A stretch of DNA of 64,000 bases from positions 8,588-72,587 of the forward strand of contig JAFGDD010000008.1 in NCBI GenBank assembly GCA_016932315.1, given 5' to 3'. This DNA is from Candidatus Woesearchaeota archaeon. GTDB taxonomy: Archaea; Nanobdellota; Nanobdellia; Woesearchaeales; SM23-78. The notes under the pieces are model-generated. The model saw only the letters and a program-made list of their open reading frames with translations. It did no database searches and had not been told where the DNA came from. The translations under genes were made by a program, and so were the position numbers. Positions 7,606-38,924 of this stretch are shown one piece after another (position 1 is the first letter of the stretch; each line of letters starts with the position of its first letter).

Positions 7606-7693
7606 CGCCTCCAGCCGGATTTGAACCGACGACCGCGCGGTTTCAGTATAAAAAATTTAACAGCCGCGAGCTCCACCGCTAAGCTATGGAGGC
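7606..7693 (-). tRNA. tRNA-Asn (anticodon GUU) with a ~16-nt intron at the canonical 37/38 position
   Basis: Reverse complement gives GCCTCCA acceptor, D arm GCTT/AGCGGTG/GAGC and anticodon stem CGCGG/CCGCG. The loop is CTGTTA[AATTTTTTATACTGAA]A. T arm is GTCGG-TTCAAAT-CCGGC with acceptor 3' TGGAGGC-G. CCA is not encoded. Confidence 0.7.
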
Positions 7694-7765: not shown

Positions 7766-9160
7766 TTAAATCTTCTTAACCCTCGGACCCTCAGAGGTGT
7801 CCTCGAGAACATAGCCTTTGACTTTTATATCCGCTCTAATCTTATCTGAGAGCTTGAAATCCTTTTTCTTCCTCGCTTCTTCCCGCTTATCAACAAGTTC
7901 CTGCACATCAACAGGTATGTCTATCTTTTCTTCTTTCAGCAAGTCAAAGCCGAGTATCTCGTCAAAATCAGCTATTAATTCCAGCTTGGTATTTGGGCTC
8001 ATAGCATTGTCTGTTATCATCTGGTTAAGGTTGGCGAGCGCTTGGGGCATGTTAAGGTCATCATTAACTGCTTGCATAAAAATTGTTCGGTATTTCTCCT
8101 TGAATTCAGGATTGACCTCGCCGCCTGCCTGCCTCTTTATCTCACTAATCCTGTTCTTCAAGGAATTATAAGCACTGGCTGCTGTGTCAAGCCCTTCCCA
8201 GCTGAACATTAACTGCTTCCTGTAATGAGTTCCTAAACAGAAGTATCTGTAAGCAAGAGGGTCATAGCCCTTGTCAATAAGTGATTGCAAAGTCAGGAAC
8301 CCTCCTGCACTCTTAGCCATCTTGCCCTTATCCATCACCAAGAATTCGCCGTGAAGCCAGTACTTGACCCAGGGCTTCTTCTGAAAAGCAGCCTCTGCCT
8401 GAGCAATCTCGTTAGTATGATGCACAGGAATATGATCTATCCCTCCGGTGTGGATGTCAAACTGCTCTCCTAGGTAATGCGAGCTCATGGCAGAGCACTC
8501 AATATGCCAGCCAGGATAGCCAATGCCCCAGGGGCTTTCCCATTTCATCTCCTGAGCCCCAAACTTTGACTTAGTAAACCAGAGAACAAAATCAGTCGGG
8601 CTCTTTTTGTTCTGGTCCTTGTCAGTCCTGGCGCCCTCTTTGAGTTCATCCAGTTTTAGTCTTGCCAATTTGCCGTAATCATCAAGCTTGGCAGTGTCAA
8701 AGTAAAGGTTGCCGCCTTTGAAATAAGCAAATCCGTTCTTTTCTATCTTCTCATTCATCTCAATCATCTGCTTGATATGCTCAGTAGCCTTGCAAATAAT
8801 CTCAGGCTTCTGGATGTTAAGCCTGCCTGTATCCTTAAAAAATGATTCAGTGTAAAACTTCGCAATCTCCAGAGCAGACTTATGCTCTCTCTTAGAAGCC
8901 AACAGCATCTTATCCTCTCCCTCATCAGAATCGCTTGTTAAATGGCCGACATCAGTAATGTTCATTACCTGATTGAGCTCAAAGCCGTTCTTAATAAGAG
9001 TTCTGCGCAGTATATCATTAAAGATGTAAGTCCTCAAGTTGCCAATATGGGCGTAATTATAGACAGTAGGGCCGCAAGAATACATCCCGACTTTTTTGGC
9101 ATGAATAGGCTTGAACTCCTCCTTCTTCCTTCCAAGCGTGTTATACACTTTTAATGCCAT
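7766..9160 (-). CDS. cysS: Cysteinyl-tRNA synthetase
   Basis: HIGH motif (AHIGNLRTY), KMSKS motif (KMAKSAGG) and Cys-binding WHIECS. Start taken at MALKVYNTLGRKKEEF. Confidence 0.9.
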   Translation of the reverse strand: MALKVYNTLGRKKEEFKPIHAKKVGMYSCGPTVYNYAHIGNLRTYIFNDILRRTLIKNGFELNQVMNITDVGHLTSDSDEGEDKMLLASKREHKSALEIAKFYTESFFKDTGRLNIQKPEIICKATEHIKQMIEMNEKIEKNGFAYFKGGNLYFDTAKLDDYGKLARLKLDELKEGARTDKDQNKKSPTDFVLWFTKSKFGAQEMKWESPWGIGYPGWHIECSAMSSHYLGEQFDIHTGGIDHIPVHHTNEIAQAEAAFQKKPWVKYWLHGEFLVMDKGKMAKSAGGFLTLQSLIDKGYDPLAYRYFCLGTHYRKQLMFSWEGLDTAASAYNSLKNRISEIKRQAGGEVNPEFKEKYRTIFMQAVNDDLNMPQALANLNQMITDNAMSPNTKLELIADFDEILGFDLLKEEKIDIPVDVQELVDKREEARKKKDFKLSDKIRADIKVKGYVLEDTSEGPRVKKI

Positions 9161-9278
9161 GATAAACACCAATAATATAGAGGGTTTTTTAAAGGTTACT
9201 AAAAGGAACAACAAAGATGAAATCTTTGCATGTTGTCATAAAGAAACATTAATAAACAGCTTTCTATTAAGCTCCTGG

Positions 9279-9773
9279 ATGAGTTATCTCATTATTATCC
9301 GCGGTCCTTTAGGCGTTGGCAAATCCACGGTTGCAAAGAAACTCGCACGTTCCATTAAAGGAAAATACGTCTCAGTTGATGAATTGCTTGCAAAACATGG
9401 TCTTGACAATGTTGACAGGAAAGAAGGCTGCATCCCCCTCAAGAATTTTATTAGGCTCAACGAAATCATCTTACCTGAAATAAAAAGCTTCTTAGCCAAA
9501 GGCACTGACGTTGTTGTTGACGGCAATTTCTATCATAAGGCACAGATAGAGCATTTGATTAATAGTATCCTGCCTAACAAATCTTGTGTTTTTACACTTA
9601 CTGCATCTTTAAACGATTGCATCCAAAGAGATAAATCCAGGAAAAAATGCTATGGAGCAAAGGCAACCAGAGCTGTTTATGAATTGGTTTCAAAAGTCAA
9701 TTATGGAAAAAAGGTTCTCACATCAGGCAAAACCGCAGATCAGATTGTAAAGAAAATTATTTCTTTGCAATAG
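9279..9773 (+). CDS. Small P-loop kinase (AAA_33/PSTK-Kti12-like fold)
   Basis: Walker A IIIRGPLGVGKST at the N-terminus and Walker B-like VVVDGNFY. Start moved to MSYLIII to avoid overlap with cysS. Confidence 0.5.
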   Translation: MSYLIIIRGPLGVGKSTVAKKLARSIKGKYVSVDELLAKHGLDNVDRKEGCIPLKNFIRLNEIILPEIKSFLAKGTDVVVDGNFYHKAQIEHLINSILPNKSCVFTLTASLNDCIQRDKSRKKCYGAKATRAVYELVSKVNYGKKVLTSGKTADQIVKKIISLQ

Positions 9774-10101
9774 TGCAAAGAATTTTTTTGGTTTTTAGAA
9801 AAAAATTTGCAAAAAATCAAAATGATAATATTTAAATATAAGGATTTATACATATTGAATTATAAAAATTTTGTCGTCGAGGAAAAAAAGACATTATAAG
9901 TGATGAAAAAAATATTTCAAAAACATTTTAGGTGATATGGTAGACTCGCTACTTTTAGAAAATGGATAATAATTCTACAATTGCTTCAGATCCCAGCGAT
10001 GAAGAGCCTGGCGGTTGTCCCGGCATTCTCTCACGCATACCCTTCGCTTTCCTAGATAGTTCTATAACCGCGCTTCCTGCTTCACACTCACAATTATTTG
10101 C

Positions 10102-10205
10102 AAAAGCCGCCTTTGACAGCCCGTTGGGCGCGACCCCAGTCAAAGCCACCGAACACCTTGACATAAATGTCTGCGGTGTTGTGGCGGGTGGCGGCGGCTT
10201 TTTCC
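10102..10205. mobile_element. MITE-like element, family A (TIR caaaagccgcc / ggcggcttttt), immediately upstream of the kamA-fusion gene
   Basis: GC-rich island in AT-rich DNA. Terminal inverted repeats. The internal ctttgactggggtcgcgcccaacgggctgtcaaagg (reverse complement) is shared with the copy at 63054-63260. Confidence 0.5.
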
Positions 10206-10247
10206 CTGACGCTTACTAAAAAATCAAAAAGAGGTTGAAGATATACC

Positions 10248-12332
10248 ATGAATCTTAAGGAATTCTGCAACAAATACCCTGAAGTCGTTGATGACATTCA
10301 GAAGGTTAAGAGAGTGTATCCTATGAAGCTCTCTGAATATTATTTAGGATTAATCAAGGAGAAAGGCGACGCCATCTGGAAGCAGTGCATCCCTGACATC
10401 AAAGAGTTAGAGGATAGTTTGAATGACGAGGATCCGTTGTTAGAGGAGGAGTACACTCCTGTTCCATGCCTTGTCCACAGGTATCCTGACAGAGTCTTGC
10501 TTCTTGCCAGCAACAAGTGCGCAATGTATTGCAGGTTCTGCACAAGGAAGAGAAAGGTAGGCAAGGAAGTCACCATAACCAAGGAAATGATATCCAGCGC
10601 AATTGACTACATCAGGCAGCACAAGGAAGTAAGGGACGTGATAATCTCTGGCGGAGATCCATTAATGCTTGACGATGATATTTTAGAATGGATTATTAAG
10701 GGCATCAGGGAAATCAAGCACGTCGAAATAATAAGGATAGGCACAAGGGTTCCTTGCACCTTACCGAGTAGGATTACTCCTGAGCTTGTTAACATGCTAA
10801 AAAAGTATCATCCATTGTTCGTTAACGTGCACTTCGAGCATCCTGCTGAGATTACAGAGGAGAGCAAGAAGGCTTGCGAGTTGTTGGCAGACGCAGGCAT
10901 ACCATTAAACAACCAGGCAGTGCTTCTCAAAGGAGTGAATGATGATGTAAAAGTATTGAAAGAATTATTCCACAAGCTAATCCAAATCAGGGTTAAGCCT
11001 TATTACTTGTACCAGGCAGACCAGGTCAAGGGAACAGAGCACTTCAGGACTACCATAGAGGAAGGCATTGACATAATGCACAAGATGATAGGATTCACCT
11101 CAGGCATGTGCGTGCCCCAATTCATAGTGGACGCTCCTGGAGGAGGAAAAATTCCTTTGCTGCCAGAATATGCTCAGCACAGGACAGAGGAAAGCTTGTT
11201 CCTGAAAAACTTTGAAGGCAAGATAGTGGAGTACAAGAATCCTCTTAGCATAGAGGTCAAAAAGAAATCAACTAGCGGAAGGATGAGGATTGCTGTTGTG
11301 TTCAACATGAAAAAAGAAGCAGCCAAGAACATGCCCGAGGATGCTTATGCAGAGTTTGACGAGATAACAGTGCCCTTGGCCATCAAGAAGGCTTTGGAGA
11401 AAAAAGGACATGTTGCAGAACTGGTTGAGGCTAACGAGAGCTTTGTCGAGAAGATAAAGCAAGGAGATTATGACTTTGTCTTTAACATTGCAGAAGGACT
11501 TAACAGCGGCGCAAGGGAAAGCCAGATACCTGCAATCCTTGACATGTTAGGCATTCCTTACACAGGCTCAGGAGTGCTCACTCAGGCAATAACATTGGAC
11601 AAAACCAGGACTAAGGAAATCCTGATGTATCACGGAGTCCCAACTCCAGGTTATCAGTTGTTCAATCACTGGGATGAGAAGATAAGCAAGAACATAACTT
11701 TTCCATTAATCATCAAGCCTAATGCAGAAGGCTCTTCCAAGGGAATAAGGAATAATTCTCTTGTCAACAATGAGAAAGAGCTTAGAAAAATGGTTAAGTT
11801 CGTTGTTAACAATTATAAACAAGCAGCGCTGGCAGAAGAATACCTTGAAGGAAGAGAGTTTACAGTGTCAATCATAGGCAACAACCCTCCGAAAGTGCTC
11901 CCGATTGTTGAGATAACCTTTGATTACCTGCCTTCTGGAGTTCACAAGTTTGATTCTTACGAAGTCAAATGGTACTGGGACAACCCTACCAATCCTGTTG
12001 ATCCAGTAGTCTGCCCTGCCAAGATTGATGATGAGCTCAGAAAAAAAATAGAAGACGTTGCTCTCAGGGCTTACAAAGCACTGGGCATTGTTGATCTTTG
12101 CAGGATGGACATGAGGCTTGACAAGCAAGGCACTCCGCACGTCATTGACGTCAATGCATTGCCAGGACTGATGCCTGACCCGCTTGAAAACTCAAGATTC
12201 CCAAAGGCCTGCTACACTGCAGGCATGAGCTATGAAAAGATAATCAATACAGTCCTCAGCGAAGCTATGAAGAGGTATGGCTTGCCAGCAGAGACCAAGA
12301 GGTTAAAGCATGCGAGTAGGAATTCTGTATAA
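10248..12332 (+). CDS. Fusion protein: KamA-family radical-SAM aminomutase (N-terminal ~350 aa) + D-Ala-D-Ala-ligase-like ATP-grasp domain (C-terminal ~340 aa)
   Basis: CAMYCRFCTRKRKVG matches the KamA CxxxCxxC radical-SAM box. After the KamA domain come FNIAEGLNSGARESQ, IIKPNAEGSSKGI and EEYLEGREFTVSIIGN, all Ddl-type ATP-grasp signatures. Confidence 0.8.
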   Translation: MNLKEFCNKYPEVVDDIQKVKRVYPMKLSEYYLGLIKEKGDAIWKQCIPDIKELEDSLNDEDPLLEEEYTPVPCLVHRYPDRVLLLASNKCAMYCRFCTRKRKVGKEVTITKEMISSAIDYIRQHKEVRDVIISGGDPLMLDDDILEWIIKGIREIKHVEIIRIGTRVPCTLPSRITPELVNMLKKYHPLFVNVHFEHPAEITEESKKACELLADAGIPLNNQAVLLKGVNDDVKVLKELFHKLIQIRVKPYYLYQADQVKGTEHFRTTIEEGIDIMHKMIGFTSGMCVPQFIVDAPGGGKIPLLPEYAQHRTEESLFLKNFEGKIVEYKNPLSIEVKKKSTSGRMRIAVVFNMKKEAAKNMPEDAYAEFDEITVPLAIKKALEKKGHVAELVEANESFVEKIKQGDYDFVFNIAEGLNSGARESQIPAILDMLGIPYTGSGVLTQAITLDKTRTKEILMYHGVPTPGYQLFNHWDEKISKNITFPLIIKPNAEGSSKGIRNNSLVNNEKELRKMVKFVVNNYKQAALAEEYLEGREFTVSIIGNNPPKVLPIVEITFDYLPSGVHKFDSYEVKWYWDNPTNPVDPVVCPAKIDDELRKKIEDVALRAYKALGIVDLCRMDMRLDKQGTPHVIDVNALPGLMPDPLENSRFPKACYTAGMSYEKIINTVLSEAMKRYGLPAETKRLKHASRNSV

Positions 12333-13320
12333 CCTCATAGACCAAGTTGAGAAGGGCAATGAGCTTGACAAGCTTGCTGATAATGAAGTCTATCAGACAG
12401 CTAATGCTGTAAAAGAAGCCTTGTCCAAAAAAGGCTACGAAGTAAGCATGGTCAGGATTGCATCTAATGTAAAGTCTCTCAAGAAGCAGATAAAATCATT
12501 AGAAGGCAAAATGGATTTTGTGTTCAACCTCGCTGAAGGAGTAGGCAGTGATGTTACAGAAGAACCAAGAGTAGTCCGTTATCTGAAAAAATCAGGCATC
12601 CCGTTCACAGGCTGCGATGATTATGCGCTTGCATTGTGCATGGACAAGCTCAAGACAAAAAAAGAGCTAATAAAGAATAACATACCGACGCCAGAATTCC
12701 AGCTGTTCAGGAAAGCAGATGATAAAATCAAGGCAAGCCTGAAGTTCCCATTAATAGTCAAGCCAGTGCACGAGGACGGAAGCATAGGCATAACAGAGGA
12801 CTCCATTGTTTATGATAATAAGCAGCTAAAAAGAAAAGTAAGAGATGTACTCACCAATTACAAGCAGCCAGCACTGGTAGAGGAATACATTGACGGCAGA
12901 GAGATTAACGTCGCCCTCCTTGGCAATGGCAAGCTCGAAGCGCTTCCATTGTCAGAGATAATATTTAATTTCCCCAACGGAACACCAAAGATTGTTTCTT
13001 TCGAGGCCAAATGGATTGAGGATTCTGAGCAGTACAAGGGAACAATAGGAAAATGCCCTGCAGACCTCCCTCAAGATATCCAAGAGAGGCTCTCTTCAAC
13101 TGCCAAAAAGGCTTTCCAGGTGGTTAAGTGCAGGGATTATGGAAGAGTTGACTTCAGAGTGAGAGGAGATGATGTTTATGTGCTTGAGGTGAACCCCAAC
13201 CCCTGCATCAACCCTGTCGGAGCAGGCTTCATACGCTCTGCAAACGCAGCAGGTCTCAGCTATGACGACGTAGTCACCAGGATTGTTGAGATTGCATATA
13301 AAAGGCATTCTGAGAAGTAA
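12310..13320 (+). CDS. Ddl-like ATP-grasp ligase, paralog 2
   Basis: VFNLAEGVGSDVTEEP, FPLIVKPVHEDGSIGI, EEYIDGREINVALLGN. Overlaps the upstream gene by 23 nt, suggesting translational coupling. Confidence 0.75.
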   Translation: MRVGILYNLIDQVEKGNELDKLADNEVYQTANAVKEALSKKGYEVSMVRIASNVKSLKKQIKSLEGKMDFVFNLAEGVGSDVTEEPRVVRYLKKSGIPFTGCDDYALALCMDKLKTKKELIKNNIPTPEFQLFRKADDKIKASLKFPLIVKPVHEDGSIGITEDSIVYDNKQLKRKVRDVLTNYKQPALVEEYIDGREINVALLGNGKLEALPLSEIIFNFPNGTPKIVSFEAKWIEDSEQYKGTIGKCPADLPQDIQERLSSTAKKAFQVVKCRDYGRVDFRVRGDDVYVLEVNPNPCINPVGAGFIRSANAAGLSYDDVVTRIVEIAYKRHSEK

Positions 13321-13598
13321 GCATTAAAAATTTCTATGTGCCAATATTGCGAGCTGATGCCAGAAATTTTATCAGTCAAAAAAAGTTAGAATTAATAAAA
13401 AAAAAATATTTTTCTCTTTTGCGAAACATTTTTATAATCCAAAAATAAAAAAATTATAGAAAAAAAATAAGAATTTTTTTATCGACGACAAAAAAATAAT
13501 CGGAAAAAAACAATACTTTCTGATTAAAAAATAAAAAAATAGAAAAAAAGCAGGAAAAATAAAAAAAATAGCAAAAAAAAGATTATCTTAATCTAAAA
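13321..13598. repeat. Extremely A-rich low-complexity intergenic spacer (~280 bp) between ATP-grasp paralogs 2 and 3
   Basis: Runs of aaaaaaa interspersed with t/g, such as aaaaaaaaaatattttt, aaaaataaaaaaatta and gaaaaaaaataag. No ORF. Confidence 0.6.
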
Positions 13599-14621
13599 AT
13601 GAAGGTCGCAATTGTTTATTCAGATGGTGAACAGACAACCCTTAACGGAGCTGATGACTATAAAGGAAGGAATGATGATACCAACCTGAAAAATGTTGAG
13701 GAAGCCATTAAAAGCCTTAACCATGAAGTAATCAAGCTGAACGCTGATGAAAAAATTTTCTCCAAGCTTCTGGAATTAAAAGACCAAATTGATATTATAT
13801 ACAACCTCGCAGAAGAAGGCTACAGCTTAGATATACACACAGAGCCACATATGGCAGCGCTATTTGAGATGCTTGGATTCAAGTTCACAGGCTCAAACTA
13901 CTTGTGCTTAGCCAACTGCCTTGACAAGATAAGGGCTAAGCAATTATTTGTCGTCAACGGCTTATCAACGCCTAACTTTATGATATTCAACAAAGAAATC
14001 ACTACTGATGTTAAGATTAACGGCTTGAAATTCCCGCTCATAGTAAAGCCAGGGAAAAGCGACGGGAGCATAGGCATACGGCGGAATTCTGTTGTCGAGA
14101 ATAGTGAGCAGCTGGTGATGAAAGTAAACGAGGTCATACAAACCTACGAGCAGCCAGCGCTGGTGGAAGAATTCATCGACGGCAGAGAAGTAAATGTAGC
14201 CATCTTAGGCAACAAGAGGCTTACAGTGCTTCCAATGTCTGAGATAATATTTGACTTGCCTGAAGAGGACTGGAACTTTGTGCCATACGAAGCAAAATGG
14301 CTGACCAAGACCAAATACTACAAAGGAACAACGCCAAAATGCCCTGCAGAGATAGAGCCCGCGCTAAAAGAAGAAATTGAAGAGCTTGCAAAAAAAGCTT
14401 ATACGCTCATGGGAGTCAGGGGCTATGGGAGAGTAGACTTCAGGATTGACGCCAACAACAAGCCTTACATACTCGAAGTTAACCCAAACCCTGACATATC
14501 CCGCGATGCAGGACTCGCAAGAATGATATCAGTTCATGGAATGACTTACGAAGACTTGATAGAAAAAATTCTAAGAATGGGAGTTAACAAGGACGAGCAA
14601 GACATTAGGATTCTAATATAA
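13599..14621 (+). CDS. Ddl-like ATP-grasp ligase, paralog 3
   Basis: IYNLAEEGYSLDIHTEP, FPLIVKPGKSDGSIGI, EEFIDGREVNVAILGN. Same architecture as paralog 2. Confidence 0.75.
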   Translation: MKVAIVYSDGEQTTLNGADDYKGRNDDTNLKNVEEAIKSLNHEVIKLNADEKIFSKLLELKDQIDIIYNLAEEGYSLDIHTEPHMAALFEMLGFKFTGSNYLCLANCLDKIRAKQLFVVNGLSTPNFMIFNKEITTDVKINGLKFPLIVKPGKSDGSIGIRRNSVVENSEQLVMKVNEVIQTYEQPALVEEFIDGREVNVAILGNKRLTVLPMSEIIFDLPEEDWNFVPYEAKWLTKTKYYKGTTPKCPAEIEPALKEEIEELAKKAYTLMGVRGYGRVDFRIDANNKPYILEVNPNPDISRDAGLARMISVHGMTYEDLIEKILRMGVNKDEQDIRILI

Positions 14622-14685
14622 AACACGCCTTTACACCAAGCTTTTTTTCCAAAAAATTTATATTATATTAAACTTACCTGCACTT

Positions 14686-15618
14686 ATGCAAATAAATGAT
14701 TTAATATTCCGAGAATTAGTAAAAAGAGGCTATGCGCTTGAGAGTCAAACTCGGGTCTGGAATGTTGCTGATTCTAAATTATGGTATCTCACTCCAAAAC
14801 AAGCTCAAGGTTTTCTAGATCTAGAAAAGAACCCTGCATACAAGAAAAGCATTATTGACAATGAGATAAAATTAATAAAAAAACACCTGAAAGACTTGCT
14901 CATTACAACCCAAGGCTCAATCAATATTATTGATCTCGGATGCGGTGATGGCAAGAAAGCTTCACTTTTCATAAAAGATCTGTCAAAACATATCAAAGTC
15001 AGGTATTGCCCTATTGATATAAGCGCATATATGGTGTCCAAAGCTGCAAAAACAATCCGTCAAATGAAAATTGGTGAAGTTTTAGAGTTTAAATGGAACA
15101 TATCTGATTTTGAGAATCTGAACAATATTACCCCCCTTTTCAGAGATCAACCATATAATACCCATTTTATGATGCTTCTGGGAAATACTTTGGGTAATTT
15201 TGAAGGTAAAGACTTACTCCACGGCATAAAGAAAAGCATGGAAAAGAACGATGTTCTGATCATTGGAAATGGTCTTAGTGATCATGGAAAAAATTTATCG
15301 CAGCCGTACAAGAACAAGCTATTGGATAAATTCCTCATTCATGTTATTAAGCAGATTGGCTTGAAGCCATCAGAAGTTAAATATGGCGCTCGATTCAAGA
15401 ATTCAAGAGTAGAAATGTTTTATGTAGTGAAAAAAGATAAGCTCTTAAACCATTTGGGAAGGCGTATTCATTTCAAATCAGGTGATTTAATAGTTACAGC
15501 CATTTCTTATAAGTACAGCAAATCTGGTTTTATAAAAATGCTTTCGTATTTCTTCTCAAATATAAAAACTTACACTGATGCTCACAACACATATGCCTTG
15601 TCTATATGTAAAAAATAA
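14686..15618 (+). CDS. EgtD-like (Methyltransf_33) SAM-dependent amine N-methyltransferase
   Basis: SAM motif I IIDLGCGDGKKASLF and YCPIDIS, which resembles the EgtD Y-x-P-(I/V)-D-(I/V)-S box. Size about 310 aa. Confidence 0.6.
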   Translation: MQINDLIFRELVKRGYALESQTRVWNVADSKLWYLTPKQAQGFLDLEKNPAYKKSIIDNEIKLIKKHLKDLLITTQGSINIIDLGCGDGKKASLFIKDLSKHIKVRYCPIDISAYMVSKAAKTIRQMKIGEVLEFKWNISDFENLNNITPLFRDQPYNTHFMMLLGNTLGNFEGKDLLHGIKKSMEKNDVLIIGNGLSDHGKNLSQPYKNKLLDKFLIHVIKQIGLKPSEVKYGARFKNSRVEMFYVVKKDKLLNHLGRRIHFKSGDLIVTAISYKYSKSGFIKMLSYFFSNIKTYTDAHNTYALSICKK

Positions 15619-15686
15619 TTTTCTCTTAATTAAGATTTCGCATCATTTTCACAAAAATTTATAAATAGCATTCCAACTTTATAGTT

Positions 15687-25615: not shown

Positions 25616-26320
25616 TCAGAGATACCTTCCGCTGAAAGGTATTCTTGAAGGCTTTTTTATCCTGTCATTAAAGAAAACAGCCATCCAGCCTTTGTCAGAA
25701 GGAACAGGGTCAAACCACCGCTTATTGAACTCATCGTAATCAAGAGCATAATAAAATGATTGATTGCCATAAATCTTGGCGCCGGGATCAGCCACAAATA
25801 TTTTATGCTTTCTGTTGTCTAGCATTTCAAAACCTCTGATGATTGAATAATGCCCGACCAAGTTGTCATCCTTTGTTGGCCTGAGATACTGCCAGTTGAC
25901 AAGAACAGGCAGCTTGTTCTGCAAAAAATATTTAAGTTCGTCAAGAGAAGCATTCTTCTTGATAAATCCTTTAAGCCCGACTTCCTTTGCTATGGCTATT
26001 ATTCCTGTAGTGCCGCAGCCTTCGTCAGGCTGCTTAAGTATTCCGTCATGCTCAATGCTCTGGAGATGCTTCTCAGCATTGTAACTGATATCGAACAATC
26101 TTTCCTGGGAAACTTCTCTTCCAGTAAGATAAAATATATAGCTTTGCATGGATGCCAGGGCGCAAAAATAGCCGTTCTTCTGCTCACGCATCACCAAGTC
26201 TTCAAGCATTATTTTATCCATGAAAATCATCACATCATAAGCATTATAGTCTGGCGGACTCATTAATGGTTTATAACCCTTTTGATAATGAAAATTTTTA
26301 TATTTTCGCCTTAATATCAT
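25616..26320 (-). CDS. Putative papain-like cysteine peptidase (C39-like)
   Basis: Candidate Cys (QPDEGCGTTG), His (VGHYSIIRGF) and Asp (FVADPG) in the order expected for C39/papain-like folds. Weak. Confidence 0.3.
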   Translation of the reverse strand: MILRRKYKNFHYQKGYKPLMSPPDYNAYDVMIFMDKIMLEDLVMREQKNGYFCALASMQSYIFYLTGREVSQERLFDISYNAEKHLQSIEHDGILKQPDEGCGTTGIIAIAKEVGLKGFIKKNASLDELKYFLQNKLPVLVNWQYLRPTKDDNLVGHYSIIRGFEMLDNRKHKIFVADPGAKIYGNQSFYYALDYDEFNKRWFDPVPSDKGWMAVFFNDRIKKPSRIPFSGRYL

Positions 26321-38594: not shown

Positions 38595-38924
38595 TTAGAA
38601 ATCCATCCTGAATTCTTTTCCGTACACCTTGAATCCGAGTTTCTTGTAAAGCTCGTGCACAGGGCATCTTCCATGCCTGCTCGTGGCTATGAGTTTGTAG
38701 CATCCCTGCTTCCTGGCTTCTTCTATAACCATTTTTACCAAGCCAGTGCCTAATCCCTTGCCCCTAACTTGTTTTTCGACAAAAACATCTTCCATCAGGC
38801 CAAAGGGCTCTTTGTGAAGGCCATTGTTCAAGACGTAAAGATAAGCCCTGGCTACTTCTTTGCCTTTGTCCATTACAAAAAACTTGAATCCTTTACCAAC
38901 AGTTCTCATAGTTTCCATGTTCAT
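38595..38924 (-). CDS. Small GNAT-family N-acetyltransferase
   Basis: Acetyl-CoA-binding motif A VRGKGLGTGLVKMVIEEARKQG. Confidence 0.7.
   Translation of the reverse strand: MNMETMRTVGKGFKFFVMDKGKEVARAYLYVLNNGLHKEPFGLMEDVFVEKQVRGKGLGTGLVKMVIEEARKQGCYKLIATSRHGRCPVHELYKKLGFKVYGKEFRMDF

Follow-up and report, generated by a model that had tools for sequence, protein, structure and literature searches.

Cells are known to use beta-lysine as a precursor of osmolytes, to form it as an intermediate in fermentation, to attach it to EF-P and to build it into antibiotics. Here, we describe a locus of a Candidatus Woesearchaeota archaeon, contained in a stretch of 64,000 nucleotides (assembly GCA_016932315.1, contig JAFGDD010000008.1, positions 8,588 to 72,587 of the forward strand; referred to as the window, position 1 being its first letter), in which a domain of the KamA family of radical S-adenosylmethionine (SAM) enzymes is fused to an ATP-grasp ligase domain resembling D-alanine–D-alanine ligase (Ddl) and is followed on the same strand by two further Ddl-like ligase genes and a SAM methyltransferase gene. 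An initial annotation, made from the sequence alone, had proposed that all five modules form one pathway to an N-methylated beta-lysine-type peptide or solute. According to our analysis, the genes at 10248-14621 probably form a three-gene, four-domain cassette for the ATP-grasp assembly of a beta-lysine-containing small molecule, to which the methyltransferase is most likely unrelated. The comparative set comprised ~170 loci from species-representative genomes and metagenomes, which were analysed by open reading frame (ORF) calling and profile matching.

The closest described systems each share some features with this cassette. In the AblA/AblB system of methanogens, which makes the compatible solute N-epsilon-acetyl-beta-lysine, a KamA-family lysine 2,3-aminomutase and a GNAT acetyltransferase are encoded in a compact operon, and AblA is also the best-scoring equivalog model for the window KamA domain. 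In the cassette, by contrast, the aminomutase and the GNAT are separated by two to three ATP-grasp ligases. Its GNATs are of another, shorter type, and in the window a GNAT is lacking and the AblA cutoff is missed. In the EpmB/EpmA system, a KamA-family enzyme without a zinc/tetramerisation domain feeds beta-lysine to an adjacent dedicated ligase. That ligase is a LysRS paralogue and its acceptor a protein lysine, whereas the cassette uses ATP-grasp enzymes; in addition, the window domain has Asp at position 330, as in lysine 2,3-aminomutase (LAM), where E. coli EpmB has Glu, and it scores below the EpmB cutoff. The cassette ligases share the fold and the catalytic residues of Ddl and L-amino-acid ligases (25-28% identity and a target template modelling (TM) score of ~0.83 to Ddl structures in a Foldseek search with the ligase domain of the fusion), but differ from Ddl in their sub-cutoff scores, their replaced D-Ala site, the missing cell-wall context and their constant association with KamA.

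In the N-acetylglutaminylglutamine amide (NAGGN) pathway (NCBIfam model TIGR03103), Ngg combines a GNAT with an ATP-grasp dipeptide synthetase and AsnO is the amidating enzyme, so that an N-acetylated short peptide arises from a GNAT-fused ATP-grasp enzyme, with neither a ribosome nor a non-ribosomal peptide synthetase involved. A ligase–GNAT fusion is also found in one archaeal cassette (locus L083), and some DPANN cassettes include a putatively adenylating PP-loop-like enzyme. The likeness is one of architecture, and the NAGGN system differs in that the cassette ATP-grasp enzymes are Ddl-like and the beta-amino acid comes from a radical SAM mutase. The negamycin cluster, in which genes for the formation of beta-lysine, for an ATP-grasp amide ligase and for an N-methyltransferase lie together, comes closest as a precedent for the chemistry proposed in the initial annotation, and softens its statement that the gene combination matches no nameable pathway; the parallel is one of gene content. 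Blasticidin S is a similar case with beta-arginine. In contrast to the multi-phylum four-gene operon described below, however, the negamycin genes belong to a specialised antibiotic cluster of actinomycetes that also encodes enzymes for hydrazine formation and hydroxylation. Finally, carnosine synthase (ATPGD1), likewise of the ATP-grasp type, joins beta-alanine, a beta-amino acid, to an amino acid; it differs in being a single eukaryotic enzyme that has no aminomutase as partner. Overall, the locus fits only membership in KamA, the ATP-grasp/Ddl-like superfamily and Methyltransf_33, and fails every other named family tested.

Aminomutase domain and Ddl-like ligases

The layout given in the initial annotation was recovered by ORF calling, with 4 ORFs on the + strand of 10248-15618 at the same coordinates, a 23-nt overlap between the first two and the motifs CAMYCRFCTRK, IIDLGCGDGKK and YCPIDIS all present, and hidden Markov model profiles returned the expected Radical_SAM, LAM_C, Dala_Dala_lig_C and Methyltransf_33 domains with E-values of 1e-16 to 1e-38. 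The fusion gene (10248-12332, +, 694 aa) encodes a KamA-family radical SAM/pyridoxal phosphate (PLP) lysine 2,3-aminomutase domain (10248-11249, residues 1-334; Radical_SAM 1.2e-18, LAM_C 9.8e-16), a flexible inter-domain linker (11250-11285, ~residues 335-346) and, in frame with the aminomutase, a class-1 Ddl-like ATP-grasp ligase domain, here termed AG1 (11286-12332; Dala_Dala_lig_C 3e-36). Its existing database label is merely ‘KamA family radical SAM protein’. The fusion is genuine and no assembly or frameshift artefact, because the fused architecture (~690-740 aa) is found in ~100 of the best 120 database clusters, from independent assemblies, and because an AlphaFold2 (AF2) model of the 694-aa protein shows two folded domains with a mean predicted local distance difference test score (pLDDT) of 86, joined by a low-confidence linker (pLDDT <50 at residues 335-343). 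The predicted TM score of this model is 0.53 and leaves the inter-domain orientation unfixed, so that no channelling geometry can be claimed.

The KamA domain of the AF2 model matches lysine 2,3-aminomutase 2A5H at 52% identity (Foldseek) and scores above the cutoff of the KamA family model TIGR00238 (302.8 bits, cutoff 199.2). It stays below the cutoffs of the more specific equivalogs, including AblA (451.8 bits, cutoff 525.4), glutamate 2,3-aminomutase (TIGR04368; 428.5 bits, cutoff 650), arginine 2,3-aminomutase (343 bits, cutoff 600) and EpmB (244 bits, cutoff 369.3). In the alignment with 2A5H, the Fe-S cysteines C125/C129/C132 (CAMYCRFC), R134, D293, D330 and the PLP lysine K337 (GGGK) are kept, and these positions are invariant across 89 cassette-linked and classical KamAs. 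The initial assignment to the KamA family is thus upheld: the residues for Fe-S, PLP and lysine binding are all in place, and the domain is no EpmB. R134 presumably binds the substrate carboxylate and D293 and D330 the lysine epsilon-ammonium group; in glutamate 2,3-aminomutase, both Asp residues are reportedly replaced. As an internal control, Asp is found at both positions in 17/17 classical lysine-fermentation KamAs, as opposed to Asp/Glu in E. coli EpmB. The retention of both acidic side-chain-binding residues argues for a cationic substrate, and the predicted reaction of the domain is likely the conversion of L-lysine to beta-lysine, because all LAM residues are kept and the classical lysine-fermentation enzymes share the Asp pair. 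The alignment with 2A5H stops at residue 370, after which the ATP-grasp domain follows in place of the C-terminal zinc/tetramerisation domain of clostridial LAM. The 2A5H zinc ligand C268 is Asp in the window domain and is retained in 0/72 cassette KamAs versus 11/17 classical ones.

The fusion gene overlaps by 23 nt (12310-12332) with the gene for AG2, a class-2 Ddl-like ATP-grasp ligase (12310-13320, +, 336 aa; Dala_Dala_lig_C 1.1e-35). An identical overlap is found in two syntenic woesearchaeal loci, L094 and L086, whose fusion proteins are 93% and 83% identical to that of the window, and is consistent with translational coupling. An A-rich spacer of 278 nt (13321-13598, +), recognised by sequence inspection, separates AG2 from AG3, a second class-2 Ddl-like ligase (13599-14621, +, 340 aa; Dala_Dala_lig_C 2e-38), which may have its own promoter. 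All three ligases match the Ddl subfamily model NF002378 below its cutoff of 243 bits (AG1 194.9, AG2 172.9 and AG3 160.5 bits), and AG2 reaches only 53.6 bits with the model for archaeal pseudomurein Ddl-like proteins (NF053643; cutoff 500). Their nearest solved relatives are all Ddl, with the L-amino-acid ligase BL00235 (3VOT) also matched (4.8e-11).

Ligase residues were mapped onto E. coli DdlB (from NC_000913), with 136 relatives included. K97, K144, E180, E187, K215, R255, D257, E270 and N272 of DdlB are kept in AG1, AG2, AG3 and the relatives, and AG1-AG3 should be active ATP-grasp ligases, because these catalytic and Mg/ATP-binding residues are in place. A different picture is seen at the D-Ala site, for which the E15-S150-Y216 triad, H63 and S281/L282 were tested. 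Y216 is Trp in all three window ligases, in 66/66 class-2 and in 47/70 class-1 enzymes; H63 is an invariant Glu in class-1 ligases, AG1 included; and class-2 ligases have Ala or Gly for S150, Gly for L282 and Asp or Cys for G276, with S150 to Gly, S281 to Ala and L282 to Gly in both AG2 and AG3. Because of these changes, the three ligases are predicted to be Ddl-like enzymes with substrates other than those of Ddl, and no Ddl orthologues. This is in line with the initial annotation, which had called them Ddl-like; they are sub-cutoff and lack cell-wall neighbours. It is speculation that the additional invariant acid of class 1 fits a diamino substrate such as beta-lysine.

Pairwise identities between AG1, AG2 and AG3 are 33-40%. 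A recent tandem duplication giving rise to AG2 and AG3 was considered and rejected, on the grounds that the two share only 40% identity and that their orthologues in other archaea are distinct; they are old paralogues. An AG3 orthologue (49-53% identity) immediately follows the fusion in the Methanocellales locus L081, where a GNAT comes next, and AG3 is kept in synteny in L094 and L086. AG2 orthologues (47-49% identity) follow the fusion in Thermoplasmatota and in another Woesearchaeote, and adjoin it in L083 (47% identity, fused to the GNAT), L087 and L086. In bacterial cassettes, the orthologue of the AG1 domain is encoded by the first ligase gene.

Conservation of the cassette

The same combination of genes, in which a class-1 and a class-2 ligase are accompanied by a GNAT and a KamA, recurs far beyond the Woesearchaeota. 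The most frequent architectures are class-1 ligase, class-2 ligase, GNAT and KamA (49 loci) and KamA, class-1 ligase, class-2 ligase and GNAT (40 loci), and fused variants account for 13 loci; a further 47 loci have KamA alone, of the clostridial lysine-fermentation type with its own conserved neighbours. The order of the two ligases and the GNAT is constant, KamA is found at either end, and median intergenic gaps are no longer than 12 nt. Apart from KamA and the ligases, only the GNAT (~160 aa; 55 loci of the first locus set) is conserved between lineages. With 160-190 aa, the cassette GNATs are short, and none matches the AblB model. The window has the corresponding core, a KamA followed by a class-1 and then class-2 ligases, adjacent and on one strand, in the form of the KamA–AG1 fusion, AG2 and AG3.

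Fusions occur between various neighbouring components: KamA with the class-1 ligase in the window and its clade, the class-1 with the class-2 ligase in L078 and P0251, the class-2 ligase with the GNAT in L083, and, in reverse order, an ATP-grasp domain with a C-terminal KamA in P0244, P0246 and P0250. Because these independent fusions chain neighbouring components in a fixed order, they argue strongly that the four activities belong to one pathway. Among P0253, P0309, P0255 and P0266, we also observed a KamA–GNAT protein of 717 aa, GNAT-containing proteins (920 aa) with a C-terminal KamA, and KamA proteins of 850-900 aa in which the N-terminal 450-500 residues have no Pfam match.

Bacterial carriers belong to at least 10 phyla and include Bacteroidota, Ignavibacteriota, Aminicenantes/Acidobacteriota, Planctomycetota, Desulfobacterota, Calditrichota (Calditrichaceae), Lentisphaerota, Verrucomicrobiota, Fibrobacterota, Spirochaetota and Myxococcales, and the archaeal ones are found in Woesearchaeota, Nanoarchaeota, Methanocellales and Thermoplasmatota. 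No conserved transporter accompanies the cassette in the compared loci, which favours an intracellular product. When compared with NCBIfam equivalogs, none of the cassette members attains any cutoff and no curated model names these proteins. A literature search, with coverage that did not extend to the Iyer/Aravind 2009 amidoligase survey as a possible earlier mention, returned no description of a cassette of KamA and ATP-grasp enzymes.

Proposed pathway and competing explanations

In the proposed model, L-lysine would be converted to beta-lysine by the KamA domain with its [4Fe-4S]/SAM and PLP sites, a step well supported by the residues. The fused class-1 ligase would then take beta-lysine and form an amide via an acyl-phosphate, as suggested by the fusion and the enzyme class, and AG2 and AG3 would each add one further unit. 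The predicted product is a short beta-lysine oligo-amide or pseudopeptide, which is presumably N-acetylated in most lineages and would be uncapped here, because the window’s clade lacks the GNAT. Options for the partner are self-condensation of beta-lysine, the omega-amine of a diamino acid, considered because locus L089 has a decarboxylase, and ordinary amino acids. Candidate roles of the product are those of a compatible solute or a polycation.

More broadly, the cassette may represent an old, widespread and unrecognised pathway to a new class of usually N-acetylated beta-lysine oligo-amides, a proposal to which we give slightly less than even weight. Within it, the fused three-ligase, uncapped form of Woesearchaeota would yield a longer and more cationic variant. 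No product has been assigned to the operon of KamA, two Ddl-like ligases and an acetyltransferase, the carriers of which include many anaerobic bacterial phyla. Should the product be a new metabolite, it would likely be widespread in anoxic sediments and groundwater. It is of note that genome-reduced DPANN archaea retain the cassette. The cassette is small and self-contained and occurs in lineages with cultured members; its unfused form is carried, for example, by a metagenome-assembled genome of the species Ignavibacterium album (L041). The comparison also corrects two database naming habits, ‘D-alanine--D-alanine ligase’ for the cassette ligases and ‘L-histidine N-alpha-methyltransferase’ for Methyltransf_33 proteins of DPANN archaea and bacteria of the candidate phyla radiation (CPR).

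Several points weigh against the assembly of a beta-lysine-containing small molecule by the window cassette. The GNAT of nearly all other cassettes is absent here, and the product may differ; AG3 may be transcribed separately, as it lies 278 nt from AG2 and two minus-strand genes occupy the position of this spacer in L086; and the AblA and glutamate 2,3-aminomutase scores of the KamA domain are both sub-cutoff and near one another (452 vs 428 bits). In addition, the roles assigned to R134, D293, D330 and K337 are presumed ones, and the sequence reveals the substrate of none of the ligases and points to no known product. The last such point is that the methyltransferase could have a tailoring role, an unlikely one in our estimation, as in the related locus L098 the slot before pyrG holds a GNAT.

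This methyltransferase (14686-15618, +, 310 aa) is a clear member of Methyltransf_33 (PF10017; 109.3 bits, gathering threshold 23, E 2.6e-31, profile positions 43-303 of 304), and its description as EgtD-like holds at the level of the Pfam family only, since it reaches 95.2 bits with the EgtD equivalog TIGR03438 (cutoff 290.9). A single-sequence search against solved structures found no relative, EgtD included, and the family profile scores 47 bits against EgtD. The family (~311 aa, 55-69% identity, in Woesearchaeota, Nanoarchaeia and CPR bacteria) is marked by a conserved N-terminus of 55 residues of its own, and retains two EgtD-type residues, the Asn of GxTxGN and the Ser of xSxK; Ala is found at the position of EgtD Glu282, which we take to be the imidazole-binding residue. 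No egt-type genes (egtA/B/C/E) were found beside the methyltransferase in the window or in three homologue contexts, and the NCBI label ‘L-histidine N(alpha)-methyltransferase’ for this family is probably an over-annotation.

The participation of all five modules in one pathway to an N-methylated beta-lysine peptide or betaine is favoured by the position of the methyltransferase on the same strand, 64 nt after AG3, in a slot that in L098 holds a GNAT capping enzyme, as well as by the EgtD-type residues and the negamycin precedent. Yet it remains an unlikely reading. The gene is missing from L094 and L086, which keep the fusion, AG2 and AG3, and was found at 0/~120 cassette loci, where the usual fourth enzyme is the GNAT; its best non-self match is only 69% identical, whereas the fusion protein has relatives at 93% and 83%. 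In three distinct DPANN/CPR contexts, homologues adjoin genes for an FKBP, a tRNA-binding protein and SerRS, for ribosomal proteins L1 and L10, or for Dus, and never KamA or ATP-grasp genes; homologues (L090-L093) are usually located among translation-related genes. Moreover, pyrG lies equally close, 68 nt downstream of the methyltransferase, so that spacing alone says little about pathway membership. The AG3 stop codon is followed by an oligo-T run (T7, 14642-14648) and by a TATA-like element, TTTATATTATATT (14657-14669, +), read from the sequence and centred ~23 nt before the methyltransferase ATG; these are consistent with a terminator and promoter of a separate archaeal unit, a weak indication in an AT-rich genome. 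Because of its absence from close relatives and other cassette loci and the unrelated contexts of its homologues, the methyltransferase is most likely an incidental, functionally unrelated neighbour, inserted in a lineage-specific manner into the slot before pyrG. The proposals of the initial annotation thus stand in part: KamA and the ligases are co-conserved and repeatedly fused, and a stepwise ATP-grasp route to a beta-lysine small molecule is the best reading, whereas a methyltransferase as a pathway member is not supported.

With an assembly of a small molecule by KamA and the ligases as the preferred reading, attachment of beta-lysine to a protein by the ATP-grasp enzymes, analogous to EpmB/EpmA or to RimK tailing, appears improbable. 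EpmB is a KamA-family member likewise truncated without the zinc ligand, RimK-type ATP-grasp enzymes act on proteins, AG2 and AG3 weakly match RimK (30-33 bits), and the cassette has no transporter. However, the ligases are far nearer Ddl (123-132 bits) than RimK, the EpmB score is well below its cutoff (244 < 369), EpmA, EF-P and aIF5A genes were not found among the window neighbours or in syntenic relatives, and no conserved candidate target gene was found at the compared loci; the variable ligase number, the GNAT and the decarboxylase and MurL-like enzyme of relatives rather resemble small-molecule tailoring. Still more improbable is a function in the cell envelope or in D-amino-acid peptides, with the ligases assembling a stem peptide like that of peptidoglycan or pseudomurein and beta-lysine as one of its residues. 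It could draw on the Ddl structures as nearest solved relatives, and on the Peptidase_M15_4 and the ~445-aa protein weakly like the peptide epimerase MurL in the L098 cassette, but these two are absent from the window and bacterial cassettes, the ligases are sub-cutoff for Ddl with substrate residues lost (Y216W, S150A/G, L282G, H63E), the pseudomurein Ddl score is 54 against a cutoff of 500, and no Mur ligase or wall gene is present in the examined window regions or syntenic relatives. An N-epsilon-acetyl-beta-lysine osmolyte pathway of the AblA/AblB type, or else lysine fermentation of the classical kind, in which the ligases would have no part, is very improbable: although AblA is the best-scoring equivalog (452 bits) and a GNAT stands beside KamA in most cassettes, the score is sub-cutoff, the short cassette GNATs do not match AblB and none is linked in the window, fermentation neighbours occur only at ligase-free clostridial loci, and fusions in both orders bind the ligases to KamA.

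Archaeal variants and surroundings of the locus

The window has no GNAT directly after its class-2 ligases. Its sole GNAT is a generic 109-aa ORF at 38595-38924 (-), and this short protein, 23 kb away, was rejected as a missing cassette component. The GNAT-less form is common to the syntenic relatives L094 (93%), L086 (83%)/L099 and L097. Other DPANN loci vary in what follows the fusion: two ligases and a GNAT in L088; one ligase and a ~445-aa protein in L087; a LysA/FslC-like PLP decarboxylase, with an AG2-like overlap with the fusion, and a member of the same ~445-aa family in L089; and a ligase, a Peptidase_M15_4, a ~445-aa protein and a GNAT in L098, in which the fusion protein is 75% identical to that of the window. 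The interval between AG3 and pyrG (window 14622-15686) is a variable slot in otherwise syntenic Woesearchaeota, occupied by the methyltransferase in the window, empty in L086, and filled in L094 with three genes on the opposite strand, among them that for glutamate dehydrogenase, and in L098 with the M15, PP-loop-like and GNAT genes.

The ~445-aa family (L098 11135-12478; L087 10369-11691; L089 10484-11830; L088 11619-13010, -) lacks a Pfam assignment. Its members carry an SFGKDS motif like that of PP-loop proteins and, C-terminally, the Cys cluster SC...WCxxCxxC, and match QueC and MurL only weakly (28 bits for MurL, cutoff 700). MurL is an ATP-dependent, AMP-forming epimerase that acts on the C-terminal residue of a peptide (PMC5808125). 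By this resemblance, a possible role of the family is to adenylate the product at its terminal carboxylate ahead of epimerisation or amidation, and there is a hint that the cassette product has such a carboxylate in free, adenylatable form. Neither the window nor the bacterial cassettes have a member of the family, and a search of the window for a PP-loop/MurL-like protein or an M15 peptidase as a cassette component found none. The Peptidase_M15_4 of the L098 cassette (10100-10981) is of the D-Ala-D-Ala carboxypeptidase/VanY-like type and hints at D-amino-acid chemistry or product turnover. In L089, the decarboxylase (9078-10487) takes the place of the class-2 ligase at the same overlapping junction and could supply lysine from diaminopimelate, or could convert a beta-lysyl-diamino-acid product, by decarboxylation, to an amide-linked polyamine.

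The surroundings of the window cassette are ordinary archaeal housekeeping genes, namely NMD3, PRPP synthetase, a helicase, an M3 peptidase, CysRS, an AAA_33 kinase, pyrG, glnA, an AsnC regulator, ThiI, fibrillarin, Nop56/58, aRF1 and glucokinase. A reading as an anti-phage defence system was dropped after a PADLOC scan in which no specific model was reached and the only match was a generic radical SAM one (19 bits to pVip).

Just 5' of the fusion gene, a GC-rich stretch (9940-10235, +) lies inside an AT-rich intergenic region. It has an 85-aa ORF, the N-terminus of which is like that of a 55-aa called gene at the equivalent place in the 83% relative, and ends with a long GC hairpin followed by a T-run. 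Neither a cis-regulatory RNA nor a small carrier-peptide gene was accepted here, given the lack of an Rfam match at gathering or permissive thresholds, a fold z-score of -1.6 and poor conservation, which stops at the 83% relative and is not seen in more distant ones. ARAGORN called zero tRNAs over the whole window. At 7606-7693 (-), an intron-containing tRNA matches Rfam RF00005 with 51.7 bits and has a 17-nt insert just after the anticodon loop; going by the loop CU-GUU-A, it is probably a tRNA-Asn. Lastly, genes for Peptidase_C39-like cysteine proteases recur in the window (25616-26320, -) and near the cassette in L086 (6137-6583) and L094 (5749-6195); in L094, the gene is located just upstream of the fusion with MFS transporter genes on both sides.

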